From: a virus
Virus record (IMG/VR): IMGVR_UViG_3300011443_000003
Location: 1 to 56,485 of that record
Reading direction: 5' to 3' (one strand)
DNA: 56,485 bases
Made by a program: the position numbers and the translations under genes. Numbering within the stretch: the first letter of the stretch is position 1; every line of letters starts with the position of its first letter. Under the pieces are notes generated by a model. It was not told where the DNA came from. It did not search any database and was given only the letters and a program-made list of their open reading frames with translations. Shown piece by piece: positions 9,730 through 50,662 of this stretch.

Positions 9730-9764
9730 CCCCTCGGTGCCAGCACACCGGGGGGATTTTTTTT
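9730..9764 (+). terminator. Rho-independent terminator
   Basis: A 10-bp GC-rich stem pairs 9730-9739 (cccctcggtg) with 9746-9755 (caccgggggg), including one G-U pair. The loop is 6 nt and is followed by A plus T8 (9757-9764). Confidence 0.7.
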
Positions 9765-9806: not shown

Positions 9807-9823
9807 CCAATCCCCCAAATACC

Positions 9824-30431: not shown

Positions 30432-30620
30432 TCAAATCTCTTTCTTCTGCTTTTCTCTCTCCAAAGCAAGCCTTGCTTGATACTTTTGCTCCAGCCGTTC
30501 GGGTATCTCCTGCTTTAGCTCGGCTTGAAGTTCAGCCATTGCGTCAGACCGAAACCTGTGCTCCAACACTGGATCGCCTTTGTAATCCGATGGAATTGGA
30601 TCGTGTATGCTCATAATCAT
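30432..30620 (-). CDS. Hypothetical small protein
   Basis: The ATG at 30620 forms an ATGA overlap with the upstream stop (MIMSIHDPIPSDY...). Confidence 0.45.
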   Translation of the reverse strand: MIMSIHDPIPSDYKGDPVLEHRFRSDAMAELQAELKQEIPERLEQKYQARLALEREKQKKEI

Positions 30621-31648: not shown

Positions 31649-33573
31649 GCGAATCTCACGGTTGGTTTCTGGATTTTGATAGAATGTCCCGCTGCCGGAG
31701 TCGGTAGCGTTCCGGTTATTTGATGAGTGGTTCCGGTCGCAAGGAAGGTTTCATTTACTATAACCTCTGTTGACCCATCTTTCAGAGTATAGCCTGCAAC
31801 GTAAAATTGGCCCTCTACCAGATTGGAGAAGTTCAACGCGAAATCGACAGTTGTAAATCGACTGTAGATAAACCGAAGAAACTTCTGTCCCGCTGCTGAA
31901 AGATAGTCTGGAAGATTCTCAGCTACCGCCAACTTGGATGTAAATGTCTGCTGTGTGGCTTCAGCTTCAGCGTCGGTGTATGGATTGCTCAGGATTACGC
32001 TATAATCGCCAGTGGCGTAAATATCCACAAACAGGCTTATAGCTCCCGACTGGAACGGGAATGCGGCCACGTCAGCAATAGCAAATCGACCACTGGCTGA
32101 ACTTTGATAGACCCTGCTCAGTGCTGTAGTTGTGTAACCGTCAGGATTAACCAGCATCGTTGCTGGACCGTCTGTTTGGCTGTCAATCGCCAGATTTCCA
32201 AAGAATGCCCACGATGCTTCGTCGGTATTGCAAACCTGACAACTGCCGCCATCTGGAGTCCAACAATAACCCAAAAGATTTCTAATGCGAGATACGCTGT
32301 TAGGGAACAAGCCTGGAGCTAAAACTTCAATCTCGGCTCCAGCGCCTTCGGCAACTGGCGGGTAAAGCCCAACGCTCGGTCTTAGGCATTCAACGTACAA
32401 ATCCTTTCTATGATGCGAAGTGAAATTACCATTCGCATCGATATGACTGCTTTCGCTAAAAAGATACTTGGCACCCGCGCATTGCACTGGAGTGGTCGGA
32501 TCGTATCCCGGTGGCGCAAGGGGCGGTATATAGTTACCGACTGTAAATGCTGTTTGGGTAACGTAACCCGTCCAAGTGGCGGTTTTGTACAGTGTGGTGT
32601 CTGGATTGGTAAACTTCGGATACCCGCGCTTGGTTCTTAAGACCGTTGTAGCACTCGTAACCATTGAAACTACTGGCGGGAAGAATGTTCTAGTTACGGC
32701 TTCGCAGGTTGTATCCGATACGGCAAAGACAATACTTCCGCCGCCTGCTCCGGTAGGGGTTCCGCTAATCAGACCGGAAAGGCTTAAGGATAGTCCCGGT
32801 GGAAGTGTTCCGCTTAAAATTGTCCACGCATAATTTCCACTACCTCCAGCGGCTTGCAACTGGAAGCTGTAGGGAGTCCCGATGGTGAAACCCGACAATG
32901 CCGCCGTGGTTATTTCAATCACCTGAATCGTGAACGTCTTTACCGCGTAATTGCCATTCGCATCGGTAGCAATAATCTGAAAAGCGTAGGTTCCGTTTAC
33001 TGTCGGAACTCCGGTTATTACGGCGGAATTCTCAGTGGCAATAAAATCCAATCCCGGTGGTAGAAATCCCACTAGAGAGAAAACAAGATCCGGTTCTGGA
33101 AGCGTAATAGACGCGGAATATACCTGCCCATTGCAAGCGCAACGCGGCAATTCACCAAGGCAAATCCTCTGCTGGTTCGCTTGTTGGCACGCATACGCCT
33201 GAGCCTGAGACAATGCTTCAGCGTAGGTTTTGGCGATGAACATGCCCGCCGCAACGGTATAGACAAACTCAGATCCATCGGGACAGGTTGCCGTGCAGGA
33301 TGCGGGTGCCGAATACCAGATTTCTTCGGGGTTTTCGCAAAGGATAGACTGCCGCAGGGCACATAAATTGGCATCCTCTTGGCTGATAAAAGAACGGCAG
33401 AGATAGAGACATCCTGGCATTGACCATTCCTCATCAATGGGAGGAGGATTCAACGGCGGGTAGACAACCGCCCAATACGGCGGATACGGCTCTGCCCCTT
33501 CCGATGAATAGTTCGATAGAAGCGATTCACCGCAATCAATCTTGTTGCAATCAATTGTGGGAACTTGTGGCAT
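31645..33573 (-). CDS. Tail fibre/spike-like protein with two putative-Ig (He_PIG-like) domains and DUF5977-like N-terminal motifs
   Basis: 642-aa ORF. The Ig-like segments are LPPGLDFIATENSAVITGVPTVNGTYAFQIIATD and GTLPPGLSLSLSGLISGTPTGAGGGSIVFAVSD. The N-terminal motifs are CPDGSEFVYTVAAGMFIAKTYAEALSQAQAYACQQANQQ. Confidence 0.6.
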   Translation of the reverse strand: MPQVPTIDCNKIDCGESLLSNYSSEGAEPYPPYWAVVYPPLNPPPIDEEWSMPGCLYLCRSFISQEDANLCALRQSILCENPEEIWYSAPASCTATCPDGSEFVYTVAAGMFIAKTYAEALSQAQAYACQQANQQRICLGELPRCACNGQVYSASITLPEPDLVFSLVGFLPPGLDFIATENSAVITGVPTVNGTYAFQIIATDANGNYAVKTFTIQVIEITTAALSGFTIGTPYSFQLQAAGGSGNYAWTILSGTLPPGLSLSLSGLISGTPTGAGGGSIVFAVSDTTCEAVTRTFFPPVVSMVTSATTVLRTKRGYPKFTNPDTTLYKTATWTGYVTQTAFTVGNYIPPLAPPGYDPTTPVQCAGAKYLFSESSHIDANGNFTSHHRKDLYVECLRPSVGLYPPVAEGAGAEIEVLAPGLFPNSVSRIRNLLGYCWTPDGGSCQVCNTDEASWAFFGNLAIDSQTDGPATMLVNPDGYTTTALSRVYQSSASGRFAIADVAAFPFQSGAISLFVDIYATGDYSVILSNPYTDAEAEATQQTFTSKLAVAENLPDYLSAAGQKFLRFIYSRFTTVDFALNFSNLVEGQFYVAGYTLKDGSTEVIVNETFLATGTTHQITGTLPTPAAGHSIKIQKPTVRFA

Positions 33574-35393
33574 TAGAACGCGATCCCCCCAGTGGTTGAC
33601 TGCTGCATCTCGGTAAACGGCCCCGGTGGAGTTACTAATCCCTCAAACGGTTGCTTCACATAAGGCGTAGCGTAAACAATGATGCCACGAATACGGCAAA
33701 AGCCCTTGATCTCAATCTTCACCTGAAATTGATGTCCGAGGCTCATAGGGCGATGGTTCATGTCGTTGCAAGGCGGGTGCGGAGGGGTCGGTAGGGTTAT
33801 CGGGAACTTGTCTCCTTCGCTGAACTCGGTAGTCGGGTAGCAAACAGGATCTTCCAACTGTTCACAGGAGTCCCGCACTATGCATTCCCTGAAGGAATGC
33901 CACCATTGCCAGCAAGGATTGCCGTCTGTTCTATACCATACCGTGCCGTCTACGGTGCCATAGATGCGATCAATCCATATTTCCCCACCATCCAGCCATT
34001 TCAGGTCGAATTCCCGTTGCCACGTCCAAGCAGGCGTCTCGATGTGCCACAACACCCGTTCATCACCGTTCTCGAAGCGGTTGGAATCGGTTAACTCCCA
34101 AAGCTGAATAGAACTGTCGATTTTGCTTACAGTCACGGCAAAGGCGCGTTCCCGACCTCCAAAGTCGCCATTGAACAGTTGCAGGATGTCCAATCCCTCG
34201 TAAATACCTTCCCATACAGGGGGCAACTGGTTACCAAGTGTTCCAATCGGGTCGAAGTCCAACGGCGCAATAGCTTGATGAACCACACCTTGTGGAAGTT
34301 GCTTGGGAAGAATTCCGTTCAAAAGGCGGTTATCGAACTCAATTGCCGTGGAGTAAACCATCAATCCGCGATCATTCAGCCTCAACGCACGATCGATATT
34401 GGAGCTGATTGGACGGTTACCCCACTGGTTTTGATACCGTAAGACGGTGAAAAGGGAGTTGATCGACGGGGTAAGCGACTGATAAAACAAGTCAGCGTTG
34501 ACGGCAACTACGGATCTGTCACTACAACCACCGTTATTGCGCTGCACTACCCTCTGGACTGGCTGATTGTCGTTGTCAGCGGCTATCCAGTCGATTCGGC
34601 TGATTGGCACGTCTAGGGCATAAATCTGCTTCCGCGTGAACACGTATAGCGTACCTTCACCAAGAGCCTTATCGATATTCGCCGCATACTGCAATGCTCT
34701 GATATTCCCCGCTTGTGTAGGCACCGCGAATCCATCCCCGCCGATAGCCAATGGATTCTCTGTCACCTTCAAGATGGAATCGCGCAAGAAGTAGGGCGCC
34801 GTGCCGCTTGGGCCTTTAACAATGTCGCCTGCTGTGTAGCTACGGAAATAGGCGTACCAGATGCGCCCTTGGTAGTAAACCATCGGACCAGCGGCAGGAA
34901 GTTCCTTTGGGGCACCCGCAAGTCCGTTGCTATGCCGCATGGTGGCCCCATCCCAAAAGGCAGGAAGGGTTGTATAGTCCCCCGCCTGAACCACCATGAA
35001 TTCCTCGCCCTGAACGAAGTGGTAAAGAGGGGCAGTTGGCGGAAAGACGAGCGGACCCGTTATATCGTCAATGCTGTTATCCGTATCGAGCCTGATGCGA
35101 TAGAACCTCCCCGAAATCGCAAGGACAAGGTAGGGTAATCCATTACTCTGATCATACATCCAGCCCCCTTGATAAAGCCCCGTGGAATCGTGAACTGTGA
35201 GGACGGGTTGCCACCCGTAGCGCTGAAGGATGCCGCCGCCGCGTGTGGTCGCGTTATTCGCCCACGCCACGGCATTGCGCGGCAATCCGTTCGGGTTGTT
35301 GTCTGAGATGATGGTTGCAGGACGGTTGCTGTCTACTCCCAACGAGAAATCCAGCGTGCCGTCTGCCCATCGGACATTTTCATTAGCGGCCAT
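33573..35393 (-). CDS. Large tail-associated protein (nozzle/tubular-B-like position)
   Basis: 606-aa beta-rich ORF with TAATG coupling at both ends. The function is inferred from size and position only. Confidence 0.45.
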   Translation of the reverse strand: MAANENVRWADGTLDFSLGVDSNRPATIISDNNPNGLPRNAVAWANNATTRGGGILQRYGWQPVLTVHDSTGLYQGGWMYDQSNGLPYLVLAISGRFYRIRLDTDNSIDDITGPLVFPPTAPLYHFVQGEEFMVVQAGDYTTLPAFWDGATMRHSNGLAGAPKELPAAGPMVYYQGRIWYAYFRSYTAGDIVKGPSGTAPYFLRDSILKVTENPLAIGGDGFAVPTQAGNIRALQYAANIDKALGEGTLYVFTRKQIYALDVPISRIDWIAADNDNQPVQRVVQRNNGGCSDRSVVAVNADLFYQSLTPSINSLFTVLRYQNQWGNRPISSNIDRALRLNDRGLMVYSTAIEFDNRLLNGILPKQLPQGVVHQAIAPLDFDPIGTLGNQLPPVWEGIYEGLDILQLFNGDFGGRERAFAVTVSKIDSSIQLWELTDSNRFENGDERVLWHIETPAWTWQREFDLKWLDGGEIWIDRIYGTVDGTVWYRTDGNPCWQWWHSFRECIVRDSCEQLEDPVCYPTTEFSEGDKFPITLPTPPHPPCNDMNHRPMSLGHQFQVKIEIKGFCRIRGIIVYATPYVKQPFEGLVTPPGPFTEMQQSTTGGIAF

Positions 35394-35626
35394 TAAGCCT
35401 TGCTTGCGAGCTTAATGAACAGTTGGCCCTGCTCGCTTGCGGGGTCGATGCCGTTATCCAAGAGCATCTTTACCATGCGGTCTTTGGCGGTCTGACCCGC
35501 CATTTGATTCAGCTCATCCCAATCGGCTTGTGTCGGGTCTTTACCCGATGCCCACTTCTGCCAGATAGCTTCCGCAAGTTTTAGGCTGCCGTTGGCGATT
35601 ATTGGTAGATAAAATTCCCATCCCAT
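35393..35626 (-). CDS. Hypothetical small protein
   Basis: 77-aa ORF. Confidence 0.5.
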   Translation of the reverse strand: MGWEFYLPIIANGSLKLAEAIWQKWASGKDPTQADWDELNQMAGQTAKDRMVKMLLDNGIDPASEQGQLFIKLASKA

Positions 35627-35629
35627 AAG

Positions 35630-35962
35630 TTATCTCGCTTTCGCTTCCAGAATTGAGTGAACAACTACCTCGGCTAGATGAATAACATCGTGAGGAGCTA
35701 GGTTCGTCATGTTATACTGTGCGGCTACTATTGCCACCCGCATACCGATTTGAAATCGGTCGTAGTTTTGGGACACCACAGGCACGTCATTGGTTTTGAA
35801 GTTTCCCCTGATAACGCCATAAAGGTATGTGTCGTATGCAGCCGTGGTGCTGCTTTCCACGCTGTAGAGCGTGTTGTGGACCGTTCGCTTGGTCGTGGTG
35901 CAAGCCCCTAGAAAGAGCGCAATTCCGACCAGCAACGGCATGGAATATTTAAGCATCTTCAT
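35630..35962 (-). CDS. Lipoprotein
   Basis: The N-terminus MKMLKYSMPLLVGIALFLGAC carries a lipobox, L-G-A-C. Confidence 0.6.
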   Translation of the reverse strand: MKMLKYSMPLLVGIALFLGACTTTKRTVHNTLYSVESSTTAAYDTYLYGVIRGNFKTNDVPVVSQNYDRFQIGMRVAIVAAQYNMTNLAPHDVIHLAEVVVHSILEAKAR

Positions 35963-36001
35963 AATGGAAAGTTGGCCCCTGATACCGCAGGGGCGACGGA
36001 T

Positions 36002-36382
36002 TTAGGGCGTAGGGGGAGGAGTCGGGTCATCAGGAATGACGTCATCAAAAGCCTGCATGGTGGTTTTAACGCCATCCATAGCCTCGGCAACTTCCGTGGT
36101 TACTTCTCCACCAGCTTCTAGAAGGGCCAACAGCCTCTTGATTTCAGTGTCAGCCGCGTCAAATCGACGAGCTTGTTCCGAGGCCACCTTTGTGGCTTGT
36201 GTTTGGATGGCCCTTAGACCAGCCGCTAATTCTGCTTGGTTCATAATGATCCTGTCTAACGTTTTGTTGTTGTCTTCTTCTTCTTTCCACTCCACCAGGA
36301 AGCGGAAAATTCTTTGCAGCCATCCAATCGTATGCTTCGGCTGGTCAGCTTCGTCTTTCGGACTTCTTAAAGGCTTGGCCAT
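36002..36382 (-). CDS. Hypothetical coiled-coil protein
   Basis: 126-aa ORF. Confidence 0.55.
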   Translation of the reverse strand: MAKPLRSPKDEADQPKHTIGWLQRIFRFLVEWKEEEDNNKTLDRIIMNQAELAAGLRAIQTQATKVASEQARRFDAADTEIKRLLALLEAGGEVTTEVAEAMDGVKTTMQAFDDVIPDDPTPPPTP

Positions 36383-36388
36383 AAAATT

Positions 36389-39040
36389 TTACTTAAATCG
36401 AATGCTGGCGACGTTTGAGTAATCCGAAAAGTTGGTTCCCGCCGCGCATCGGACACGGAATTGATAGTTCCAGTTCTTTACACCCCCGCCTTGAGGATAA
36501 CCGTGAGAACTTGGAGGTAGTGTTGCAACCTTACTGAATGGCGGGAATGGGCCTGTTTTCTTTCCACTCATCTCTACCTCATATCGATCTTCTCCGGTGG
36601 CATTGTCAATCCAATTCAGGTTCATGCTTGCACCCGCTTTGGTGACAGTCAATGATGTTGGGGCACTCAATACTGGAATCGGTTGAATCGGCGGAGAATT
36701 GGTCGGGGCTGTGACTGACACCTTCCATTCTCTAACATCCCACGCGCTGCCATGCTCCAAATCTTCAACCATGATAGCAAGGGAGTGGATACCCGGTTCT
36801 GGAAACGTAAGCGAGCCGTTAAAGTAAGAACCTGACCCGTTCGCATAATTACAGTTCACACACACTCCTGCGCTTCCCATGACCCAGAAGTTATTGTTTG
36901 TTTTCAAATTGGCCAGATTGGTCACAGCGAAGTGAAGCGTAAAGGGAGTAGTGCCGCACAGCTTGTTAAACTTGACGTTCAGCACCGGGAATGGAGTTGT
37001 GTTGGTGGCATCGGTTCCGGTGCGAAGGATTATCCTGTCGCTGTCAGCGTGTGGCGAAAATTGATCATTGTAGGTGTACGCCTTCACCATGTATGAAGCA
37101 TTGGTGTTGAGATACCCGCGATAGTTCACGTTGAACCCATTTCCGATTGGAAGCCAGTTGGAGTTCCAGGCGTTCAATCCGGCACTGGTGACGTAGGGTT
37201 TGAAATACACCTCCTTCGACGGAATGCTGTTAGTTATCAGCCAAACACGCACAAACAAATCGGAAGTGCCCACCGGATTTGTAGCTGTGATTCCAATCTT
37301 GTAATCATGTATTTTGAAAGTGTCCGGGTCGCTGTAGACATTCAAGAACAGGTTGCTTCCGTCCGCACCGCCGTTCTTGTCCGATGCGCCCACGAAGAAC
37401 GGAAAGCTTACATCCAAGAATCTGTTATCGGGCGTGAACGGAAACACATTGGTCAACGACGCAATCCTGTTCCATCCGTTTACGGTTATGACCCGAAGCG
37501 CATCCCCGTTGGGATCGCTTGCATTGAAAGATACCACCGTTGGATTTCCACCAACCGTATCGTATGCCTTAATGTCCGAAACGATAGGTGGAGAATTGGT
37601 CTTTGGGCTGAAAACGAGTGGATTGGATAGTGTCTTTTGAGCGTTAATCTTTGCCCCCGTTGTGCTAAGCAATCCCATCTCAGTCATCTCATCCGTGCTC
37701 TGGCTGTTAAGCAGAATGTCCTTTAGTTCGTAGACCGAGAGATTTGGATTAAGAGCAACCACCAATGCCGATAAACCGGAAACGTGCGGGGTGGACATTG
37801 AGGTTCCTGAAGCGGTCTTATAACCGTTAGCACTACCCATGATGAAGGTGGTATTGGTTGGAACAGTGCTAAGAGTGGAAACTCCCGGTGCAGATACATC
37901 CGTCAGAACCAGGTTGTAATTCGAAAACTGAGCCAGCTTGTTTGCTGAATCCGATGCCAAAACGGTGACGCTCCCCCTGTTTCCGAGTCCCGCTGGCTGG
38001 AACGGATTAATGCCTATGTCCTGACCCGAATTACCCGCCGCGATAACGGACAGGATGCCAGCTTGCTCTACACTTTGAAATGCATCCCGCAAAACCTGTT
38101 CACTGCCGGGCCCACCCCACGAATGGTTGCCAACCCGTATATCCACCCCTTGCGCTTTCAGCTCAATGGATTTGTCCAAAAGCTCAATAACGTCTGCGAT
38201 GGTGCCGTCACCGTTTTTGTTCAGGAACTTCATAGCCATCAGCTTGACGTTCCAATTCATGCCCGAGATACCAATGCCATTATTCGCTACCGCTCCGACG
38301 GTTCCAGATACATGCGTGCCGTGGCCGTGATTATCCATGCCGTCAGAGACCAAGTTACCATTTATACACGTCCACCCATGATTTCCGTTTTGACCGGTAT
38401 ATAAATGAGTCGCAAGGTCTGGATGCGTAAAATCAATTCCAGTATCGAAGACAGCAACCACTATGTCGGAATCACCTTGGGACTTGTCCCACGCCTGTGG
38501 CATGAAAATGTTAGTCATATCCCATTGCTGAGGCCACATTGGATCAGTTGGTGAAACGGCTATGCTAACCGGAGAATCAGGTTCAATGTACTCGACATCT
38601 TCACGCAACGCTTCAAGCAACTCAGGGTTATCAATCTCAAGCCGAACAAGGTTAAGGTGAACAAGATGCTTGCTCTTGTTCTTAGGGCCATGGTCTTTGA
38701 CCTTCTTCTCGATGTTCGGTTTTCGATCCTTCTTTGGCTTTGCCAACCAAACAGTATTCGTAGACGCCACAATAGGCTCAGCAACTCCAAATTCGGACAC
38801 TTTTAAGGAAGGTGAAATGCGCTGCGCCGTCGCCGTGAACGAAAGCGCAACGCAAAAGAGTGTGGATAGTAGTTTAACCATGAATTGCTGGTCCAAATAC
38901 TTTCCAGCCCAAAATAGGGCCAGAAGAATCCAGAGGACAAGATTGCTTCCGGCCCACGCCAACGGGTTTGCGCGGTTGGTGTAGAATCCGAAGATCAATC
39001 CAATTGTCATTATCACCCAGAATAGTAGACCTATGCTCAA
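36389..39040 (-). CDS. Exported subtilisin-like serine protease (peptidase S8) with C-terminal beta-rich/Fn3-like domains
   Basis: The catalytic triad contexts are VVAVFDTGID, HGHGTHVSGTVGA and SGTSMSTPHVSGL. The track start at 39040 is TTG. In-frame ATGs lie at 39010 (adds two TM helices) and at 38881 (MVKLLSTLFCVALSFTATAQ, a Sec signal). Confidence 0.8.
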   Translation of the reverse strand: MSIGLLFWVIMTIGLIFGFYTNRANPLAWAGSNLVLWILLALFWAGKYLDQQFMVKLLSTLFCVALSFTATAQRISPSLKVSEFGVAEPIVASTNTVWLAKPKKDRKPNIEKKVKDHGPKNKSKHLVHLNLVRLEIDNPELLEALREDVEYIEPDSPVSIAVSPTDPMWPQQWDMTNIFMPQAWDKSQGDSDIVVAVFDTGIDFTHPDLATHLYTGQNGNHGWTCINGNLVSDGMDNHGHGTHVSGTVGAVANNGIGISGMNWNVKLMAMKFLNKNGDGTIADVIELLDKSIELKAQGVDIRVGNHSWGGPGSEQVLRDAFQSVEQAGILSVIAAGNSGQDIGINPFQPAGLGNRGSVTVLASDSANKLAQFSNYNLVLTDVSAPGVSTLSTVPTNTTFIMGSANGYKTASGTSMSTPHVSGLSALVVALNPNLSVYELKDILLNSQSTDEMTEMGLLSTTGAKINAQKTLSNPLVFSPKTNSPPIVSDIKAYDTVGGNPTVVSFNASDPNGDALRVITVNGWNRIASLTNVFPFTPDNRFLDVSFPFFVGASDKNGGADGSNLFLNVYSDPDTFKIHDYKIGITATNPVGTSDLFVRVWLITNSIPSKEVYFKPYVTSAGLNAWNSNWLPIGNGFNVNYRGYLNTNASYMVKAYTYNDQFSPHADSDRIILRTGTDATNTTPFPVLNVKFNKLCGTTPFTLHFAVTNLANLKTNNNFWVMGSAGVCVNCNYANGSGSYFNGSLTFPEPGIHSLAIMVEDLEHGSAWDVREWKVSVTAPTNSPPIQPIPVLSAPTSLTVTKAGASMNLNWIDNATGEDRYEVEMSGKKTGPFPPFSKVATLPPSSHGYPQGGGVKNWNYQFRVRCAAGTNFSDYSNVASIRFK

Positions 39041-39056
39041 ACTTACCTCGCTTTCT

Positions 39057-39365
39057 TTATGTGGTTAGCTTTGTTTCAAGTGCAGCTTTAGCGTCTGCGA
39101 TCTGAACCGTGTTGACATTGGTTTGCTGTGCAATGGCATTAGATTGCTCAACTACTTCCTTTAAAGCTGAAGCGTCGGCGGCAAATAACGAAGTCAGGAA
39201 CTTTCCGATGATGTTAATGACGTATCCAGAAAGAGCCAGATACCACAATGTAGCCTTGTAATCTGGACTTAGATCGACGCTAAACTGCGGAAGCACGCCA
39301 ATTCCGATTAGGCTAGATCCCAAAGTGCTAATAGCACCGCCGATGGTTGTTTTGTAGTTTGCCAT
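39057..39365 (-). CDS. Two-TM holin-like membrane protein
   Basis: 102-aa ORF with two hydrophobic helices (TIGGAISTLGSSLIGIGVL and LWYLALSGYVINIIGKFLTSLF) and a hydrophilic C-terminal tail. The call rests on topology only. Confidence 0.4.
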   Translation of the reverse strand: MANYKTTIGGAISTLGSSLIGIGVLPQFSVDLSPDYKATLWYLALSGYVINIIGKFLTSLFAADASALKEVVEQSNAIAQQTNVNTVQIADAKAALETKLTT

Positions 39366-39381
39366 AGTTATCTAGGGATGC

Positions 39382-39798
39382 TCATGGAGGTTTCTGTGTT
39401 CGAGCTGGTTGTTGTGGTCGATTTGCTGTTGTTGCTTTATGCAGTCTCAAATCTTCTCCAATCTTAATAATATCCTTTTCCATTGCCTCGACACGCCTTG
39501 CCATTGCAGTAGAACCAACGGTATCAATTTGCCTTTGCCAAAGTTCCAAGGCGGTTATCCTGCTTGCATTTGCCGTAGTCATTGCTGACTGTTCGGCACC
39601 CTGTTTCACCAACACATCCATTTTGGTACTGATGCTCGATGCCCACCATATGCTGGTTCCGAAACCACCAGCACATAGCCCCGCAACAACAACAAACATG
39701 CCTATTGCAACAGGAAGAGGAACCGATATTTTGTCTGTGCTTGTTTGATCACCTTCTGAGTCCCTATATTTCATTGGAATTGGCTCTTCTGAGTTCAC
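39382..39798 (-). CDS. Single-pass membrane protein with coiled-coil ectodomain
   Basis: 138-aa ORF. The track start is GTG, with an ATG at 39774. The TM helix is PLPVAIGMFVVVAGLCAGGF. Confidence 0.5.
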   Translation of the reverse strand: MNSEEPIPMKYRDSEGDQTSTDKISVPLPVAIGMFVVVAGLCAGGFGTSIWWASSISTKMDVLVKQGAEQSAMTTANASRITALELWQRQIDTVGSTAMARRVEAMEKDIIKIGEDLRLHKATTANRPQQPARTQKPP

Positions 39799-39807
39799 TT
39801 TCTTAAA

Positions 39808-41274
39808 TCATTTGGCGTACTTGGCCGAAAAAGTGTTGTATACACCAGACCCGGCACTGATTACGGTTCCGCCAAAATTTACAGTGCCGTAGAAATAACC
39901 TCCCACTGCCACATTTCCAAACGCATCAAAATCTACACTCTGACCGTGACTCTCGCCTCCTATTGACCCATCCTTTCCCCATTTGTAAACGGGTGCGCTG
40001 GCACCGCTAGAAGTGAATACTGCAACGAAGAAGCAAGCACTTGGATTTCCGTGAAGTATATTTCCATCGAAACCAATTACCCCGAACACCTGTCCAGCTA
40101 ACCCAATGTTTCCAGAATCGTCCATATCCACGGCAAATGCTGTTGCTGCACTAAACCCATCGTTTCCCTTATAAACCTTGTCCCAAATGTATGTGCCGCT
40201 TGTGTTATATCCGGCCAAGAATATTCCAGTGACGGCTGACGAAACGCTACCTCCTCCAAAATTAGCCGTTCCGTTGAATGCTCCGGTAATGAGCACGTTC
40301 TTAGTCACCGGATCGCATGTGATAGAATTCCCCGTGCTTCCAGATCCTCCTCCAAACACACCATGCCAAAGGTAGCTTCCATTTGAACCGAGATATTTGG
40401 CTACGCATATCCCGTTTGTGGTTGTGGGCCCATTGCCAAAGTCAACATCGGCAGCTAAAGAGACCTGCCCCGTGATTACCACGTTGCCATCTGTATCAAC
40501 CGCAATACCGTTTGAATTGTCAGCGGCACTTCCACCATACATCTTGCCCCATGCGGTCACTCCCGCTGCGGCACCGAACTTTCCAATCGTAAGGTCGAAG
40601 CTGCCATGACCCGTAGCAGTTACTCCATTTCCGAAGTTGACCAACCCGCCAGAACGGGATGCAGCGAACACATTACCCGAGCTGTCAACCGCTATGGCGT
40701 TTCCATTGTCGGTTGCACTGCTTCCATAGCCCTTGGCCCAAGAAAGGGTTCCAGCCGATGAGTATTTAGCCAAGAACACATCCGTGTCCAACGATCCGCC
40801 CGTTGCGGTTAGCGTGGTTCCGCTGATGTTGGCGCTGCCCTGAAAGTTTCCGACCATGATGATATTGTCTGAACTGTCCACGGTTACACCTGTTCCATTG
40901 TCCGTAGCTGTTCCGCCCATTCCCTTAGCCCATATCAAAACTCCCGATGGGCTGTACTTCACCAAAAAGGCATCCAACCCACCAAAGCTGGTTATCTGAC
41001 CGGAACCGAAGTCCACGAAGTTAATGAACTGACCGACTACGATCAGGTTTCCAGCACTGTCGTTTTTAACTCCGTTGACTCTGGCTTGATACTGAGGAAA
41101 TGAAGTCTTTACCCATTGCAAAGCACTCGGAGCCACGTTCGTGTTAATGACTCCCGGGGTAGCAATCAGCCTTACGCTTCCCGTTATCTGAGATGTTCCA
41201 GAAACCTGAATCCCCGGCTGTGCGCCAAGCAATCCAGCTATCAGGCAGAGAAGCAATGTTAGCGGAGTTTTCAT
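39808..41274 (-). CDS. Secreted SBBP-type beta-propeller repeat protein
   Basis: The signal peptide is MKTPLTLLLCLIAGLLGAQ. Units such as GGTATDNGTGVTVDSSDNIIMVGNF and GSSATDNGNAIAVDSSGNVF recur. Confidence 0.65.
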   Translation of the reverse strand: MKTPLTLLLCLIAGLLGAQPGIQVSGTSQITGSVRLIATPGVINTNVAPSALQWVKTSFPQYQARVNGVKNDSAGNLIVVGQFINFVDFGSGQITSFGGLDAFLVKYSPSGVLIWAKGMGGTATDNGTGVTVDSSDNIIMVGNFQGSANISGTTLTATGGSLDTDVFLAKYSSAGTLSWAKGYGSSATDNGNAIAVDSSGNVFAASRSGGLVNFGNGVTATGHGSFDLTIGKFGAAAGVTAWGKMYGGSAADNSNGIAVDTDGNVVITGQVSLAADVDFGNGPTTTNGICVAKYLGSNGSYLWHGVFGGGSGSTGNSITCDPVTKNVLITGAFNGTANFGGGSVSSAVTGIFLAGYNTSGTYIWDKVYKGNDGFSAATAFAVDMDDSGNIGLAGQVFGVIGFDGNILHGNPSACFFVAVFTSSGASAPVYKWGKDGSIGGESHGQSVDFDAFGNVAVGGYFYGTVNFGGTVISAGSGVYNTFSAKYAK

Positions 41275-41299
41275 CGGCCCGGTATCGGCGGAAATAGTG

Positions 41300-41722
41300 C
41301 TACCTTGTTAACCCTACGATTACTCCCGCTGACGTTAGTAGCCACGGAGCGGGTTCCGAAAAATCCGACACGGTTTGGTTTAGGTGATTCGTTACCTTCA
41401 TTGCGAAAAAGGATGAAAAAGTCAAATCCCTCATGATGTTAAATTGCCATAGATTTGAAACAGGAGTTATTGATGTAGCGGGTATAACGATTTGCACTGG
41501 CCACGTTGCTACAGGGGTAAGCAATGCTGGCGATTGAACAAGTATAAATGACATGTTAGTTGAAGCATCCCGAATTGACATGCCTCCAAGACTGTTTGTG
41601 CCATCTATTGGCCATCTCCAACTAAGTTTCAATAGTTCAGGAGTTCCAGCCCGAGCCGCGAGTGTGAGCATGGCGAGGATGAAGCATACTGCCGCGAATA
41701 TATACCATCGGTTTGATTTCAT
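41300..41722 (-). CDS. Secreted hypothetical protein
   Basis: The signal peptide is MKSNRWYIFAAVCFILAMLTLAARAG. It has ATGA coupling. Confidence 0.55.
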   Translation of the reverse strand: MKSNRWYIFAAVCFILAMLTLAARAGTPELLKLSWRWPIDGTNSLGGMSIRDASTNMSFILVQSPALLTPVATWPVQIVIPATSITPVSNLWQFNIMRDLTFSSFFAMKVTNHLNQTVSDFSEPAPWLLTSAGVIVGLTR

Positions 41723-41904
41723 TTTAGTAGGGTTTCTTCACCGTTAAACGGTTTGCAACCGTAATCTGTTTGGGTCATAGCGTCTTGCCAACCTTGCCAG
41801 TATCCAAGGCTGTGCTCTCCGTCTTGAACTCCTGAGTCATACGCAATTTTCCACATTGATATTACTACAACAAAAGCAACCAACCATTTTGCTGCAATTT
41901 TCAT
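41719..41904 (-). CDS. Small membrane protein
   Basis: The ATG at 41904 forms an ATGA overlap (MKIAAKWLVAFVVVISMWKIAY...). Confidence 0.45.
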   Translation of the reverse strand: MKIAAKWLVAFVVVISMWKIAYDSGVQDGEHSLGYWQGWQDAMTQTDYGCKPFNGEETLLK

Positions 41905-42674
41905 GGTATTCCAAAATCTATTTTGCATTGTGCAACAGCACTGCTTTCTTCAGCGGTTGTAAGAATATTGGTCCATGCCCACACACGACAAATGTTTCCT
42001 TTGTAAAGTTGCCACTGAGCTAGATATGCTGCACCAAACGATGTGCTTCCAGCATTTCCACTTGCGGCTGTTACACCATTAGTGTCGATTCTACTAGACG
42101 CGCCATTAAACACCGCAGTTATTACATAATAATCATTCGTAATAGTTGCTGGCGTAGATAAAAGCGTGCCAGCCGAAATCTCAAGAGAACTGTTGCGATA
42201 CCGAAGATAAGGCGGGATGCCTGAACCATTAACGAAAATAAATTGTTCAGCCGCGGGAGTGCTACTATTCGCTACAACAATAAAAGTGGCAGTGGGCTTT
42301 CCGAAATCTTGTGATTCCATTCTGGTCGATGAACTCGATGTAAAATCGACTCTAGGAGATGTCCCATTTCCGCCTCCTCCACTTGTATAGTTAGTAGGAA
42401 ACGCCCCATCGGCATTAAAAAGACTACCACTAACAAGATTCGTCCAATGGTTAATACCAACACCGTCCCCTGTAGTGAAATCCTTTCCAGCACTGAGTAT
42501 TGGGGTTAGCTCTAACCATATAAACATTTGATTAGCTGTATTAGTAGGCCACCATCTACCTGATGCAGAAACCCTGTCCTTAGCAAAGTACGGCTGGTCG
42601 TGCGAGAACGACCCAAACCCCTGAGCAAACAGGTAGATAGGAATGCAGAAAGCTAGGAATAGGAGTAGGCGTTT
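41901..42674 (-). CDS. Secreted LamG/concanavalin-like protein
   Basis: ATG at 42674 with signal peptide MKRLLLFLAFCIPIYLFAQ. The pattern HWTNLVSG...ATFIVVAN...YYVITAVFNGASSRIDTNG resembles the Laminin_G_3 layout. Confidence 0.45.
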   Translation of the reverse strand, partial: KRLLLFLAFCIPIYLFAQGFGSFSHDQPYFAKDRVSASGRWWPTNTANQMFIWLELTPILSAGKDFTTGDGVGINHWTNLVSGSLFNADGAFPTNYTSGGGGNGTSPRVDFTSSSSTRMESQDFGKPTATFIVVANSSTPAAEQFIFVNGSGIPPYLRYRNSSLEISAGTLLSTPATITNDYYVITAVFNGASSRIDTNGVTAASGNAGSTSFGAAYLAQWQLYKGNICRVWAWTNILTTAEESSAVAQCKIDFGIP

Positions 42675-42679
42675 CATAC

Positions 42680-44116
42680 TCAGAATTGGCGATACACCGC
42701 ATTGGTTCCAAAGGCTGGATGGTAGCGTATCGAAAGCATTCCCTGAGAGGCATTGCTGATAGCCACTTGATTCGTTCTCTCTGGAATCCATCCTGAAGGA
42801 ATCGTTAGCAGCCAATTCGTTGAAGATTTGTTCGTAAGCGTTAGCATCACGGATTGAACTACTGTGTTTGATCTGTTAAGCAATCCCGTGATGGAGCAAG
42901 CAGTAAACGAGGCATATCCCTGATCTTCCACGTTCAGATCTATGGCGTTGGTTGGGCCAAGCCATGCGTTTGTCCTAAAGAACACAGTATTGGCCGTCAT
43001 TGAGGAATTTGAAGCCACTAACGACACAGCCTCCACGCCTCCAAGCAAAAGGCTTATCCTTCCTGGCACGGTTCCGCTAACAGGCGAGAACGTGGTTGTA
43101 CCGTAGAGTGTGGCATTCGTCAGTGGCCAAGCCACGTTGTACGTGAAGTTACTGCTTATGGTGTAGGTCGGAAATATGTTCGTGACGAAATAATTGCTTA
43201 CGTAACTGTTGTTGACAAAAATATTGGTGTTGAAAAAGTTAGATACGTATTCGTCTGTCTGGTAGAAATTCGTGACCGTTATGTACGAGGTTGGGAAATT
43301 GGTCACATACACGTTAGTATTAAAGAAATTGCTCACATACGAGTTGTTAAAAACATTAGTAGTGAAGTAGTTACTGACAGTGGTATCTGACGTATAGATG
43401 TTCGTGTTGAACACAAAATAGTTCGACGTTAAATAAGTCGCAAAAAGGTTGGTTATGTAGGCGTTCGATACCGTCATGAACTGCACGTTCGTATAGGTAT
43501 TGTACGTAAACTGGTTGACTGTAACATCCACGTTTGAAACGGTCGTGAACAGATTCGTGACGTAGTAGTTGCTGACAAAATTGTTGTTGTAAACGTTCGT
43601 GTTGAAATAATTGCTCAGGAACGTATTTCCCTGATAGTAGTTCGTGACCGTCAGGTTCGTCTGGTAGTTTTGAGTTATGTAATAGTTCGTAAAGAAGGCA
43701 TTCGACACCGGAGCGTTATTGATTACGTTAGTGAAAAAGTAGTTCGATACGTAGGTGTTGTTATTGTAGATGTTCGTATTGAACAGGTAAAAATTGGTGT
43801 TTGCGTTAACCAAGTACAGGTTTGTGATGAAAGATGTCTTGCCGTGGAATTCGTTCAACACTGTCAGGTTGGTAAAGAACGCATTCGACACGTAGAGATT
43901 GTTCAGGATCGTCACCGTCGCCGGATTCGTCCCAATGGCATCCTTAAGCTGATTCCAAGTGATGTTCTTGTTTGTCGCTCCGCTTGCCAATAGGAACAAG
44001 TCTCCTCCAGCCGGTGCCGTTGTGTTCGGAAACTGGCTGATCTTGACGACGATGGTTGCGCCGATGGACGAAAACACCATTGAGAGAATCAGGAATGGGA
44101 GAAGTAGTTTTTTCAT
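42680..44116 (-). CDS. Secreted N/Y/F/T/V-rich repeat protein (beta-solenoid-like)
   Basis: The signal peptide is MKKLLLPFLILSMVFSSIGA. About a dozen degenerate VSNYFxTNvYNN units span about 265 residues that are almost devoid of charged residues. Confidence 0.65.
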   Translation of the reverse strand: MKKLLLPFLILSMVFSSIGATIVVKISQFPNTTAPAGGDLFLLASGATNKNITWNQLKDAIGTNPATVTILNNLYVSNAFFTNLTVLNEFHGKTSFITNLYLVNANTNFYLFNTNIYNNNTYVSNYFFTNVINNAPVSNAFFTNYYITQNYQTNLTVTNYYQGNTFLSNYFNTNVYNNNFVSNYYVTNLFTTVSNVDVTVNQFTYNTYTNVQFMTVSNAYITNLFATYLTSNYFVFNTNIYTSDTTVSNYFTTNVFNNSYVSNFFNTNVYVTNFPTSYITVTNFYQTDEYVSNFFNTNIFVNNSYVSNYFVTNIFPTYTISSNFTYNVAWPLTNATLYGTTTFSPVSGTVPGRISLLLGGVEAVSLVASNSSMTANTVFFRTNAWLGPTNAIDLNVEDQGYASFTACSITGLLNRSNTVVQSVMLTLTNKSSTNWLLTIPSGWIPERTNQVAISNASQGMLSIRYHPAFGTNAVYRQF

Positions 44117-44154
44117 TTTGCGGTCACTTGCTTGATGATAAGATTCTCATAGGT

Positions 44155-45030
44155 TTAGTTTGTTGTTACAGTTACTCCTCTGGCTACCATTGTGTTTTTA
44201 TCTGTGACACCTTGTCCGGTGGGGCCTGCATTCGTTCCGCCTTCTACTTTTATAAATCCCCCTCCGGTGAAAAGCGGGCTTGCAACAGCGCGAGCGAACA
44301 CTTGATTTACAGTAGTGTTCAGAAGCGCGTTATCGCTGAAATCCACGGTGCATGGGCCTCCAAATACGACATTTGGAATGCTTATATTTGTCAGACCTGT
44401 GTTGAATTCTATTACTATCGATGCGTTCGTATCGACTGATGTCAAACTTGATAAATCCAGGGATGTGATCGGCAGGCTGTAAATTGTAAGGTAAGACCCA
44501 TTACCCATCGTTGAGAAACTCGGAAGCGATAAAGCGGTCTGTGCTGGCAAATCTCCAACATCTAGCCCTGCGTTGTCGCTGAGGGTTTGAAAAGAATCTA
44601 AGTTGATCGATGAAAGCAACGGGCAGCCCGACGCAATTGGAATGTATCCACTGTCTCCGATTGTAACCAACGAAGAAAGGTCAAGAGTCGTCAGGGCCGC
44701 ATTGTTGTCTATGTCAATGCGGCCAAGGCAGTTTACCAAATTAGGGAAGGACAGTAGTGTCGCATCTTGAAAATCTCCACAGTCAAGATGCGCCCCGACC
44801 GCAACCGTTGTTAGTCCTGATAAAATGAAGTTTGTTATGCCGCCAGGACCAGGAGTCGGAAGACCCGCCATCGGATACCAGTCTCCTGTTAGCGTGCCTG
44901 AAGCGAATGTAATTTGATTTGCCACAACCTCCAACGTCCAATCTCCTGCCGTGAGACTGTTCGCACGCCAGAGATTGCCAGTCGCGGTGTCTTTGTAGAT
45001 TTGGCCGATGAAATCAGGTGTTACACTCAT
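44155..45030 (-). CDS. Leucine-rich-repeat (BspA-like) fibre/receptor-binding candidate
   Basis: The ATG at 45030 forms an ATGA overlap. LRR units include LTTLDLSSLVTIG, LLSSINLDSFQTL and ITSLDLSSLTSV. There is no signal peptide. Confidence 0.55.
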   Translation of the reverse strand: MSVTPDFIGQIYKDTATGNLWRANSLTAGDWTLEVVANQITFASGTLTGDWYPMAGLPTPGPGGITNFILSGLTTVAVGAHLDCGDFQDATLLSFPNLVNCLGRIDIDNNAALTTLDLSSLVTIGDSGYIPIASGCPLLSSINLDSFQTLSDNAGLDVGDLPAQTALSLPSFSTMGNGSYLTIYSLPITSLDLSSLTSVDTNASIVIEFNTGLTNISIPNVVFGGPCTVDFSDNALLNTTVNQVFARAVASPLFTGGGFIKVEGGTNAGPTGQGVTDKNTMVARGVTVTTN

Positions 45031-45332
45031 GTTGGATCTCCTGCTCCTTCTACGTTCACACAATCACCACCAGGAGCTGGAGGAACTACCCCGCCGCTGA
45101 TAATGCACATCAAGTACGGCTCAAGTAACTGCAATTGCCTTGGTGTAAGGCATTGGAAGCAGGCGGCGTCAGCCATCAGTGTTGCTGGATCAAGGCTTCC
45201 ACCGGCTATCACGGCCAACAGATAGGTTTTTACCACATCCCGCTGCGCCTTGGTTAGGCATGAGAAGCATGCGCTTAGTTCCGCTACGGTGCTTGTGTCG
45301 CAAACAAATTCAGGCATATCATTCGACTCCAA
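45027..45332 (-). CDS. Small Cys-motif repeat protein (two CFxCLTxxQ...LL...GG modules)
   Basis: 101-aa ORF with modules LSACFSCLTKAQRDVVKTYLLAVIAGG and ADAACFQCLTPRQLQLLEPYLMCIISGG. Confidence 0.55.
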   Translation of the reverse strand: MESNDMPEFVCDTSTVAELSACFSCLTKAQRDVVKTYLLAVIAGGSLDPATLMADAACFQCLTPRQLQLLEPYLMCIISGGVVPPAPGGDCVNVEGAGDPT

Positions 45333-45528
45333 TCATACCGCCATCTTCGCCACCGATAATCCCGCTTCCGCCTTCTTCCCCAATAACAATGATGTCCTCC
45401 TCTGGGGCTATTCCTCCAGCCGCCACGCATAGCAATTGGGTCAACGCGGCATCAGATTGCTGCGCGGTCAGGCAGTTATTGAAGCAAGCTGCCGCGCTTA
45501 CTATGTCCTGAACAGAACACGATGCCAT
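45319..45528 (-). CDS. Small Cys-motif repeat protein (one module plus acidic Gly-rich tail)
   Basis: 69-aa ORF with module SAAACFNNCLTAQQSDAALTQLLCVAAGG. Confidence 0.5.
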   Translation of the reverse strand: MASCSVQDIVSAAACFNNCLTAQQSDAALTQLLCVAAGGIAPEEDIIVIGEEGGSGIIGGEDGGMIGVE

Positions 45529-45579
45529 AGTGGTTTAGAGAAGGGCGACGGCGTTACCCGCCGCCCGTTGAATTGTTTC

Positions 45580-45912
45580 TTACGTTGTCAGGGCGAGCGT
45601 CAGCAAATGTGTGTGCAACGCCTTGATCGTCTGAGGATCGGCGCATAGCAGGCATTTGATCTTCGCCATCAGTTCAGCAGACGTTTCACCGTTGTCCTGC
45701 TGCGTCCATAGGAATGAAGCGATGCTTTGTTTTAGCTGCGTTTCACTCCAGCACTTAAGGCACACGGTATCGTCTACCAAGGTGCTCAAGTCATCCGGCA
45801 GGGTATATCCGGCTTTCTCAGCCAGAAGCAGGACCAGTAAAGCGTCCAGTTCCTTGCCAAAGAAGCATTGCACGCACGGGTTGGTTTCGATGTAGTTTAC
45901 GGCTGTAGCCAT
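45580..45912 (-). CDS. Small Cys-motif repeat protein (three divergent CxxC modules)
   Basis: 110-aa ORF with modules CVQCFFGKELDALLVLLLAEKAG, CLKCWSETQLKQSIASFLW and CLLCADPQTIKALHTHLLTLAL. Confidence 0.5.
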   Translation of the reverse strand: MATAVNYIETNPCVQCFFGKELDALLVLLLAEKAGYTLPDDLSTLVDDTVCLKCWSETQLKQSIASFLWTQQDNGETSAELMAKIKCLLCADPQTIKALHTHLLTLALTT

Positions 45913-50377: not shown

Positions 50378-50662
50378 CTAGACGTAAACTCCAAGAACCT
50401 GCGTACCTTTCAGCAGCTTCAAACACCGCGCACCCTCGTTGACCACCGTCCCCGTCCGTTGCCCGACGATTACGCGGTCGCCCAAGACGAACTCAAAGGG
50501 CCGTTTATGGTCCACGCTGCCCATCCTACGCACGATTGCGTCAACGGGGTAGTCTTGAGCCTGTTCAGGGATATGCAGCCCGCCATTGGTCTTGGTGGTT
50601 AGCTGAAGCTCAACTAGGACGTGACCCCGCTTGGGTCGCACGTTGGTGATTTTGTAGTTCAT
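50378..50662 (-). CDS. GroES/Cpn10-like co-chaperonin
   Basis: 94-aa ORF. VRPKRGHVLVEL...TNGGLHIPEQAQ...VLGDRVIV...LKGTQVLGV aligns by eye with the GroES pattern I(R/K)PLxDRVLV...GGI.IP...VGDxVxf. Confidence 0.55.
   Translation of the reverse strand: MNYKITNVRPKRGHVLVELQLTTKTNGGLHIPEQAQDYPVDAIVRRMGSVDHKRPFEFVLGDRVIVGQRTGTVVNEGARCLKLLKGTQVLGVYV

Follow-up and report, generated by a model that had tools for sequence, protein, structure and literature searches.

Exported proteins encoded in the putative late gene region of an uncultured phage include a mobile fibre-lectin module

Results

The stretch analysed here, the whole of IMG/VR virus record IMGVR_UViG_3300011443_000003 (56,485 bases; hereafter the window), carries at positions 35630-44116 a block of genes for exported proteins. 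A first-pass annotation had described six open reading frames (ORFs) of this block as having general secretory (Sec) or lipoprotein signals. All six were found on the minus strand with canonical predicted signals. Part of the block, centred on a fibre-like protein (rep478) and a swappable lectin (LamG258), is conserved, mobile and common to unrelated viruses, which the earlier annotation had missed. With a probability of about 0.4, we favour the reading that the block encodes exported, non-virion, envelope- or receptor-directed proteins beside lysis-type genes. The features are collected in Table 1.

Export signals of the block proteins

The signals were scored with a home-made heuristic that took into account n-region charge, h-region hydrophobicity, the -3/-1 residues and the lipobox, and about 70 genes were scored. 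Five block proteins passed the test for Sec and signal peptidase I (SPase I) and one passed the lipobox test for signal peptidase II (SPase II). The former called for a positive charge in the n-region, a hydrophobic h-region of 7-15 residues and small residues at -3/-1, the latter for [LVI][ASTVI][GAS]C behind an h-region. A signal or signal anchor at the N-terminus was flagged in seven genes, all within the block, and the chance of finding seven flagged genes within 13 consecutive genes of 70 is P~8e-5. The sole flag outside the block fell on a doubtful ORF (9514-9882) overlapping a plus-strand ORF. Independent gene callers picked the same starts.

The signal feature was kept while its sequence drifted in the full-length members of the rep478 family (family n=54), in the lectin family (n=18) and in the orthologues of the closest relative, L007 (L numbers designate contigs compared with the window). 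Each full-length rep478-family member has a canonical signal of its own, and the mature proteins begin alike (ATIVVKISQFPN.. or ATIQWYSQQP..). Because a drifting signal before a conserved mature start fits the evolution of signal peptides and is unlike that of anchoring domains, we take these N-termini to be true signals. Judged from sequence, the export signals of the block are genuine.

Three of the five predicted SPase I sites (S8 protease, SBBP488 and lectin) expose Gln at +1; rep478 and sp140 lack it. Gln at +1 was also present in most members of the lectin family, including all those with a QGFGSF motif, and in 7 of 21 flagged proteins of relatives. Gln at +1 of SPase I substrates is the Bacteroidetes-specific Q-rule (PMC5837995), and Q-rule signals have been described on signal-peptide genes of Porphyromonas gingivalis phages (PMC10367356).

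Twin-arginine translocation (Tat)-type signals were seen on module proteins of two other viruses, at 6183-7106 of L037 (MMKRRTFIKTG..) and 11343-12212 of L040 (..NRRKFLNKVG..). This suggests that relatives possess Tat-exported module members; the block of the window has none. The C-terminal sorting domain of the type IX secretion system (T9SS; TIGR04183/TIGR04131/PF18962) was found on no block protein in Pfam and NCBIfam searches, and secretion by this route was ruled out. Since the sorting domain is missing, the proteins would by default end up in the periplasm of a Bacteroidota host or on the inner side of its outer membrane. The block proteins were not enriched in Cys or in the Bacteroidota O-glycosylation motif, and a need for periplasmic maturation through either was rejected.

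The fibre-like protein rep478

The layout of rep478 comprises a Sec signal (residues 1-20), a small N-terminal domain, an Asn-rich shaft (~63-349) and a C-terminal beta-sandwich (350-478) that ends in ..GTNAVYRQF. The shaft, of about 290 residues, shows a 5/15-residue periodicity with a [ST]N[YF] motif. In the AlphaFold2 (AF2) model, the mean predicted local distance difference test score (pLDDT) was 49. Good modelling was confined to the small N-terminal domain and the C-terminal beta-sandwich, the latter with a pLDDT of ~90, and the shaft was left unmodelled as a monomer.

A Foldseek search of this model against PDB gave, among the top 13 matches (E 1.6e-3 to 0.6), nearly exclusively parts of phage fibres, spikes or baseplates. 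These included a phage capsid spike, an Acinetobacter phage tailspike, the N-terminus of CBA120 TSP4, a Klebsiella phage baseplate and T4 gp10. Against BFVD there were 47 matches with E<=1e-3, and the named ones were tail fibres and YadA-domain, collagen-repeat, Stf-repeat and beta-helix proteins. Since the model is poor, these fold matches are weak. We take rep478 to be fibre-like and probably trimeric.

No Pfam, PHROG or NCBIfam match to rep478 was found, nor any sequence-level relative outside its own family. A tblastn search of its N-terminal region against phage records returned nothing, which left a suspected N-terminal tail-fibre motif without support. The terminal YRQF had raised the idea of an outer-membrane beta-barrel or autotransporter; this was rejected, as no barrel was among the Foldseek neighbours and other family members end differently. 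The period-5 [ST]N[YF] motif resembles the A(D/N)LXX of pentapeptide-repeat proteins, and here Pfam gave no match and AF2 built no beta-helix.

The swappable lectin LamG258

The second protein, LamG258, has a Sec signal (residues 1-18), a conserved mature N-terminal peptide (QGFGSFSHDQPYFA) and then a jelly-roll domain. The first-pass annotation had recognised this ORF and started it at 42674; the start is at 42677, giving 258 aa as in the public gene call. The mature motif QGFGSFSHDQPY[FL]A, conserved across the lectin family, starts exactly at the predicted cleavage site. In other viruses, divergent mature sequences start at the same point (QFGSFNGDQPFLA, QFGVEQPMFA, QFGVEQPFFL and QFVAQQPFLKA).

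The AF2 model of LamG258, built with 18 homologs (pLDDT 81), is a concanavalin-A-like jelly roll. Foldseek returned lectin-like jelly rolls (E ~3e-6), with probability 1.0 for the Hc-N domain of clostridial neurotoxin, a trans-sialidase lectin domain and domain 4 of AbnA (a GH43 arabinanase); a cyanophage tailspike was matched as well. LamG258 itself has no Pfam or profile match, and PF13385 (Laminin_G_3) was found on the lectin-family members P0016 and P0017. Residues 22-39 of the model have a pLDDT below 50 and are disordered, and the conserved peptide spans residues 19-34. This disorder is as expected of a docking peptide, a role that the N-terminal peptide may have.

Among genomes 95-98% identical to the window, the sole segment replaced was 41872-42573, the mature domain of the lectin. 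Because this domain alone is replaced among near-identical contigs, we regard the block as a cassette site under diversifying pressure. The suggestion that the block might behave as a swappable cassette was thus borne out by the replacement of the lectin domain and by the variable content of the same slot in relatives.

The fibre-lectin pair in unrelated viruses

The comparative sample was reached through pattern-based searches and by tracing distant rep478 homologs to the contigs that encode them, and eight contexts of the fibre-lectin pair were inspected. In seven of them, a signal-bearing fibre-like protein and, after it, a lectin of the Q-(G)FG..QP[FYM][FL] type were encoded adjacently or one gene apart. 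The pair was present in L043, a distant member of the same family (capsid 34% identical), and in L039 and L040, which represent two other phage lineages of ~45-49 kb. It was also present in L044 (logan SRR20958213_1226, 13,352 bp), where it follows small membrane-protein genes and spans ~1.9 kb of the 13-kb sequence. The coat protein of L044 matches both domains of the double-jelly-roll protein P2 of corticovirus PM2 (1.3e-13 and 1.4e-6).

Homologs of sp140 accompany the pair in L039 (E 2.7e-9) and L040 (E 2e-6). Transmembrane (TM) proteins follow the module in all contexts, and a lipoprotein follows it in the family of the window, in L040 and in L043; in L040 a Pfam-recognised holin lies next to it. 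Judging from gene order and similarity, the genes of the module belong together functionally and move together, having been seen in at least three lineages of tailed phages and in one corticovirus element of the PM2 type, and are no collection of unrelated morons. In a non-exhaustive literature search, no earlier account came up of an exported module that comprises several proteins, is conserved and mobile and centres on a fibre-like protein and a swappable lectin.

After the rep478 homolog was found in the PM2-like element, we considered whether the window might stem from a membrane-containing virus, whose biology would account for the hydrophobic N-termini. A double-jelly-roll virus was rejected for the window because it encodes a terminase-type ATPase-nuclease and because the N-termini are short cleavable signals and not anchors.

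The slot of the block in relatives

IMG/VR contains 23 related contigs of ~50-57 kb. The family order is capsid, acidic protein of ~100 aa, CxxC proteins, variable region, TM proteins, lipoprotein, ~75-aa protein, p606 and p642. The TM proteins and the lipoprotein keep their position within the family and not their sequence.

The variable slot holds different proteins in different relatives. L007 has orthologues of rep478, the SBBP propeller, the lectin and m61, together with a small exported protein, and has no protease. L037 carries a 12.6-kb version of the block, in which LamG_3 domains stand behind both signal and CxxC N-termini. Six unrelated signal-bearing proteins are encoded in L029, including a right-handed beta-helix (3.8e-15), and L012 encodes a signal-bearing YadA-head protein (1.3e-9). 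The large exported proteins are missing from L008, L014, L018, L019 and L031.

Signal-less slot proteins of 260-834 aa occur in L008, L014, L018, L019, L031, L013/L026, L017, L027 and L028, and their N-terminus consists of one to four CxxC domains. This domain (~70 aa, C[FY]xC[LI]..Q...YLL) is stand-alone in the window (45027-45912, minus strand) and fused to other domains in relatives (e.g., L008 5882-8362 and L037 3367-4401), including one LamG_3 protein. It is possibly a virion-anchoring domain. Direct homology between the exported domains and the CxxC-fused domains was rejected, as no BLAST link was found and they share only the Pfam LamG_3 class in L037.

Table 1. Positions of the block genes, their flanks and other features of the window. 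A slash marks the predicted cut.
Feature	Positions	Strand	Predicted cleavage (heuristic)	Remarks
rep478, exported fibre-like protein, 478 aa	42680..44116	-	IGA/T21	ORF, signal heuristic, 54 homologs, AF2, Foldseek
LamG258, exported concanavalin-A/LamG-like lectin, 258 aa	41901..42677	-	LFA/Q19	AF2, Foldseek, family alignment
m61, 61 aa, N-terminal signal anchor	41719..41904	-		Orthologue in L007, 56% identity
sp140, small exported protein, signal 1-25	41300..41722	-	ARA/G26	Heuristic; homologs in other lineages
SBBP488, exported SBBP beta-propeller, signal 1-18	39808..41274	-	LGA/Q19	Pfam, NCBIfam
tm138	39382..39798	-		Acidic cytoplasmic N-terminus, strong TM ~26-42, polar periplasmic tail of ~90 aa
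m102, two weakly hydrophobic Gly-rich segments, polar C-terminus	39057..39365	-		Holin-like by architecture only
Two-TM ORF, 53 codons	38882..39040	-		Fused in frame to the S8 gene by a 2-nt insertion
S8_830, exported subtilase, 830 aa, starts MVKLL	36389..38881	-	ATA/Q20	Pfam, PHROG, triad motifs
cc126, soluble polar protein without signal, Pro-rich C-terminus	36002..36382	-		N-terminal PLRSPKDE motif
lipo110, lipoprotein, hypervariable sequence	35630..35962	-	LGA/C21	Lipobox L18-G19-A20-C21
p77, small soluble protein between lipo110 and p606	35393..35626	-		Protein of ~70-77 aa here in most relatives
p606, putative virion structural protein, 606 aa	33573..35393	-		Conserved downstream flank
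Upstream flank: LRR-like 291-aa protein and three small CxxC proteins (96, 69, 110 aa)	44155..45912	-
Putative major capsid protein, 516 aa	46296..47846	-		Most conserved gene of family
Cpn10/GroES co-chaperonin	50378-50662	-		Between portal-sized and capsid-like genes
Terminase-like ATPase-nuclease, 896 aa	2884-5574	-		Walker A GSRDSGKT, Walker B LLGDE
Plus-strand island, only one in genome	11300-14800	+		~8 small ORFs

Protease, propeller and small proteins of the block

The subtilase S8_830 has a signal (residues 1-19), a pro-region, a catalytic domain and ~430 aa of immunoglobulin (Ig)-like C-terminal domains. It matched Pfam Peptidase_S8 (PF00082, 6e-49, 167 bits vs a cut-off of 21.8) and PHROG 3677 (1.6e-51), and its triad D146/H187/S361 is intact (motifs DTG146, HGTH187 and GTSM359-362). 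The first-pass annotation had given this ORF as 36389-39040 with an internal start. A subtilase with a signal is indeed there, but the 883-aa ORF joins two genes. The near-identical contigs L002-L006, five in number, have a two-TM ORF of ~55 aa of its own before the protease, and its TAA stop overlaps the S8 ATG; a 2-nt insertion (TTTT vs TT) is found in the window and in L001 and not in L002-L006. Because the longer ORF arises from this insertion, we take the 830-aa form as the protease. The indel is either real strain variation or an assembly error.

SBBP488 matched Pfam SBBP (PF06739, 4.2e-8, 33.5 bits vs a cut-off of 20.5). Membership in LipL53 was rejected, as the NCBIfam LipL53-type match (6.8e-21, 74.5 bits) lies far under the 400-bit equivalog cut-off. 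Its orthologue in L007 is 32% identical and has its own signal. The S8 protease is absent from L007 and other relatives, and protease and propeller are lineage-specific additions to the block. By eye, the fold of sp140 looks like fibronectin type III.

The first-pass annotation had placed three small membrane ORFs among the exported genes. They were found, but the one at 39057-39365 (m102) is weakly hydrophobic (peaks of mean Kyte-Doolittle hydropathy 1.56 and 1.38) and a fourth lies at 38882-39040. Twelve homologs of m102 were found, none of them annotated, and its candidacy as a holin gained no support: an hhalign comparison with the Phage_holin_10 protein of L040 was negative, and there was no family match. 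The architecture of tm138 is i-spanin-like, and its tail may be helical. No family support for tm138, m102 or the other small block proteins was found in Pfam, PHROG or NCBIfam; m102, the 53-codon ORF and m61 are small TM proteins without a holin family match. Spanin topology fits tm138 together with lipo110, yet their genes are 3.4 kb apart, without family match or an endolysin found.

A lipoprotein gene lies just upstream of the p77/p606 orthologues in most relatives that reach this position, and sequence homologs of lipo110 itself were found only in L012 and L025. The P(L/V)LRSPKD(E) motif of cc126 recurs near the N-terminus of different proteins at the same module position (L007 8712-9344, L037 13078-13434 and L029 20292-20825).

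Flanks and transcription of the block

The block had been described as flanked by tail-like genes on both sides, which we could not show. The upstream flank is head-side, with the putative major capsid protein, an acidic protein, CxxC proteins and a leucine-rich repeat (LRR)-like protein. Downstream, p606 weakly matched one PHROG "virion structural protein" family (3 of 12 orthologues, best E 1e-4). The 516-aa protein was designated the putative major capsid protein because it is the most conserved and follows portal-sized and scaffold-like genes. It has 199 cluster representatives in 1.8 billion proteins, and no match supporting its identity was found in PHROG, in Pfam, by tblastn against 50,697 phages, in PDB profiles or in a PHROG scan of distant relatives. 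Putative virion proteins of this phage are unusually rich in Cys: there are 14 in the capsid-like protein, of which many are invariant across 17 relatives, and p642 (31645-33573, minus strand) and p343 (30617-31648, minus strand) have 18 and 12.

The block genes are tightly packed, partly overlapping and on the same strand as the capsid-side genes; for instance, the start of m61 overlaps the stop of the lectin gene and its stop overlaps the start of the next gene. Promoter- and terminator-like sites in the block were at or below shuffle expectation with crude promoter models, and the Bacteroidota -7 motif was not enriched there. With no promoter or terminator signal found, a separate transcription unit was rejected. 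Co-transcription with the structural genes, as the first-pass annotation had stated it, is in our view a deduction, which the packing, the overlaps and the shared strand make plausible.

Genome, lifestyle and host

An identical direct repeat of 123 bp occupies positions 1-123 and 56363-56485. From this terminal repeat, the window is a complete, circularly assembled genome of ~56.36 kb. Nearly all genes are on the minus strand, and the ORFs of the plus-strand island have no family match. Soil-type metagenomes of the European Nucleotide Archive (ENA) and the Joint Genome Institute (JGI) contain the same genome or near-identical pieces, and the phage family is known from metagenomes only. Host DNA or an assembly chimera was ruled out by the terminal overlap and by the presence of the same block on independent ENA, JGI and NCBI contigs.

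The ATPase-nuclease contains an intein of ~300 aa directly after Walker B (LLGDE/C...HN/C, slashes marking its ends). Its C-terminal motif aligns weakly with the nuclease of the P22 gp2 large terminase (E 0.03). Pfam recognised the intein only, and the spliced extein still had no terminase profile match; no Pfam terminase, portal or capsid match was found in the genome. Other recognisable functions are a Cpn10 co-chaperonin, an HNH protein, a PD-(D/E)XK nuclease and an AAA_24 protein. L042, a contig of an unrelated phage, has a Cpn10/GroES gene in the corresponding place. Family and profile scans recognised no endolysin anywhere in the genome.

The phage is apparently tailed and virulent. It looks virulent because no integrase was found and because its most conserved protein is absent from species genomes: neither integrase nor repressor was present among the ORFs scanned, and the capsid-like protein and rep478 had no relative, i.e. 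no prophage copies, in 185,579 species genomes. The host is probably a soil member of the Bacteroidota, a deduction from the Q-rule sites, the scarcity of Shine-Dalgarno motifs before genes and the best genome matches of the S8 protease, all of which are from Bacteroidota (26-30% identical). The GC content is lowest at 41000-45000 (0.44-0.46), and the GC skew is reversed over the rep478 gene. The low GC of the rep478 region is at least partly due to the 17% Asn of this protein.

Discussion

Large exported proteins that are dispensable and variable, together with a swapped lectin, are as expected of host-interaction cargo. In the reading that we favour, the block genes would be made together with the late genes, the host Sec machinery would translocate the products, and SPase I, with three of five sites exposing Gln, or SPase II would cleave them. 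Without a T9SS domain, the proteins would remain in the periplasm or at the outer membrane. They would not join particles during cytoplasmic assembly, because they are exported and have no route back. Working from the inner side, the lectin, probably with the fibre to which it may dock, would bind envelope glycans or receptors that vary between strains, and the S8 protease would cut envelope proteins. The pay-off would most likely be the masking or destruction of receptors, by way of lytic conversion, superinfection exclusion or keeping progeny safe from debris. The membrane and lipoprotein genes nearby would serve lysis or exclusion. Of the roles proposed from the first inspection, lysis-time remodelling, exclusion and surface modification are still the right candidates, but nothing points specifically to remodelling of an S-layer.

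Several points weigh against this reading and keep it tentative. The largest protein without an assignment, rep478, resembles virion fibres; beta-helix and YadA-head domains, as are typical of tailspikes and fibres, occur on the exported proteins of relatives; and the slot of the block is the very one in which relatives have fibre-like proteins with a CxxC anchor and no signal. The fibre-lectin pair is large (~1.9 kb of 13 kb) for an accessory function, and late expression in a lytic cycle would leave exclusion little time to pay off. The signal predictions are heuristic, and the host phylum is a deduction. The label "lysis-type" comes from architecture alone, because no endolysin was recognised in the genome.

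Some of these points would equally fit the fibre-lectin pair, perhaps with the propeller, as the receptor-binding apparatus of the virus, exported by Sec, given a pyroglutamate N-terminus, folded in the periplasm and joined to finished particles after holin lesions or lysis. The architecture and Foldseek neighbours of rep478, the slot shared with CxxC-anchored fibre-like proteins, the LamG_3 domains behind either N-terminal module in L037 and the beta-helix and YadA-head domains all speak for it. Moreover, cleaved rep478 begins with a small folded domain, as fibres do, the constant N-terminus and swappable C-terminus of the lectin form the classic pattern of receptor-binding proteins, and the pair is retained in a 13-kb PM2-like genome. 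We nevertheless judge this unlikely, since we know of no tailed phage that assembles parts from the periplasm, and close relatives with every other structural gene in place lack the block. In addition, the fast-evolving p642 with its Ig-like domains is an ordinary candidate for receptor binding, BLAST-level homology between exported and CxxC-fused domains was not found, no enrichment of Cys or the O-glycosylation motif explains a periplasmic maturation, and the rep478 model is poor with weak fold matches. Accessory lysis factors, with the protease, lectin, propeller and fibre breaking outer layers (outer-membrane tethers, glycan coat) alongside holin- and spanin-like proteins, are a doubtful alternative too. 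The TM proteins after the module, the lipoprotein in several lineages, the Pfam holin abutting it in L040, the i-spanin-like topology of tm138 and the lipobox of lipo110 are consistent with such a function. Sec- and signal-anchor-release (SAR)-exported endolysins are known, and exported enzymes could matter where no cytoplasmic endolysin is recognised. This alternative is weakened by the many relatives that do without the large proteins and yet have to lyse their hosts, and by the swapping of the lectin at the strain level, which is not expected of a lysis factor; furthermore, no block protein has a muralytic domain, and the spanin and holin assignments lack sequence support.

Exported proteins inside late operons are also the classic pattern of morons. 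Those of lambda (lom, bor) and HK97 (gp15) are exported or membrane proteins encoded among head and tail genes, dispensable and variable, and a moron is transcribed in the prophage state between a promoter and a terminator of its own. The block might by analogy be lysogenic-conversion cargo of benefit to the host, with adhesins and a protease on carrier cells for biofilm or surface change, expressed apart from the late operon. GC content is at its lowest in the rep478 gene, where the skew is reversed as well, and gene content varies among relatives. We hold this to be quite improbable, as no such flanking signals were found around the block genes, whose start and stop codons overlap, the scanned ORFs included neither integrase nor repressor, no prophage copies were in species genomes, no T9SS domain offers a route across the outer membrane, and the low GC is explained at least partly by Asn content. 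Most improbable of all is that the proteins are ordinary tail fibres with mis-called starts, whose hydrophobic N-termini are no signals. Beyond the fibre-like features of rep478, this idea draws on the capsid proteins of other Bacteroidota phages, whose predicted signals have been treated as not reflecting Sec export, with cleavage by a prohead protease suggested instead (PMC10367356). It is opposed by n/h/c architecture with -3/-1 sites on six proteins, by a feature conserved across 54 and 18 homologs while the sequence drifts, by the lectin motif that begins exactly at the predicted cleavage site, by the recurrent Gln at +1, by lipobox and (in relatives) Tat motifs in the same module and by the agreement of independent gene callers on the starts.

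Exported phage proteins in late operons (Llp/Cor, lom/bor, spanins, endolysins) and Q-rule signals of phages are already known. Llp of T5 is a periplasmic lipoprotein whose gene lies beside the receptor-binding gene and which blocks or inactivates the receptor from inside (PMC9586334). Like Llp, the Cor lipoproteins of T1 and phi80 serve superinfection exclusion or lytic conversion: they are exported, their genes stand beside receptor-recognition genes in the structural region, and from the periplasm they target the receptor that the phage itself uses (PMC9586334). The conserved lipoprotein position of the block and its receptor-like variability fit this pattern. Llp and Cor are single lipoproteins of ~60 aa, whereas the block encodes six exported proteins, the longest of 830 aa, and among their domains are fibre, lectin, propeller and protease. 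P. gingivalis phages share with the block Sec-signal proteins that expose Gln, read there as envelope modifiers; the genes, however, are scattered and the phages temperate, and a multi-gene fibre-lectin module is not mentioned in the passages that we cite (Matrishin et al. 2023, PMC10367356).

Holin/spanin cassettes of the Rz/Rz1 type resemble the block, in which genes for small TM proteins, for a type-II membrane protein whose periplasmic tail is long and for a lipoprotein of the outer-membrane type cluster on one strand. They differ in that the block has no adjacent endolysin and no family match, that its candidate i- and o-spanin genes are 3.4 kb apart and that mature lipo110 has 90 aa and is not Pro-rich. 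Tail fibres and tailspikes (T4 gp10-type, CBA120 TSP4 N-terminus, YadA-like and Stf-repeat) share the N-terminal domain, repeat shaft and C-terminal beta-sandwich of rep478, whose family-wide canonical cleavable signal and lack of a sequence match to phage records or PHROG set it apart. The PblA and PblB proteins of Streptococcus mitis phage SM1 are likewise fibre-like and act on the bacterial surface and not on the virion alone. However, they have no signal peptides, probably reach the surface once the phage has caused lysis and belong to a phage of a Gram-positive host.

Exported proteins of phages are known mostly as single small exclusion or lysis factors, and here a multi-protein set is conserved and exchanged among unrelated viruses. 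If its proteins end up on virions, the rule that the parts of tailed phages assemble in the cytoplasm would need an exception, which would be categorically new. It would amount to a two-compartment assembly route for a tailed phage, common to a corticovirus-like virus of the same hosts. The Q-rule offers a marker of host phylum for uncultured phages, and the module, with a lectin cassette, a protease and six signals, provides a compact and testable handle. The outer membrane of Bacteroidota is dominated by glycans and TonB-dependent transporters. If the block acts on this envelope from inside, as we favour, it would represent a receptor- or glycan-directed strategy so far unstudied in Bacteroidota.

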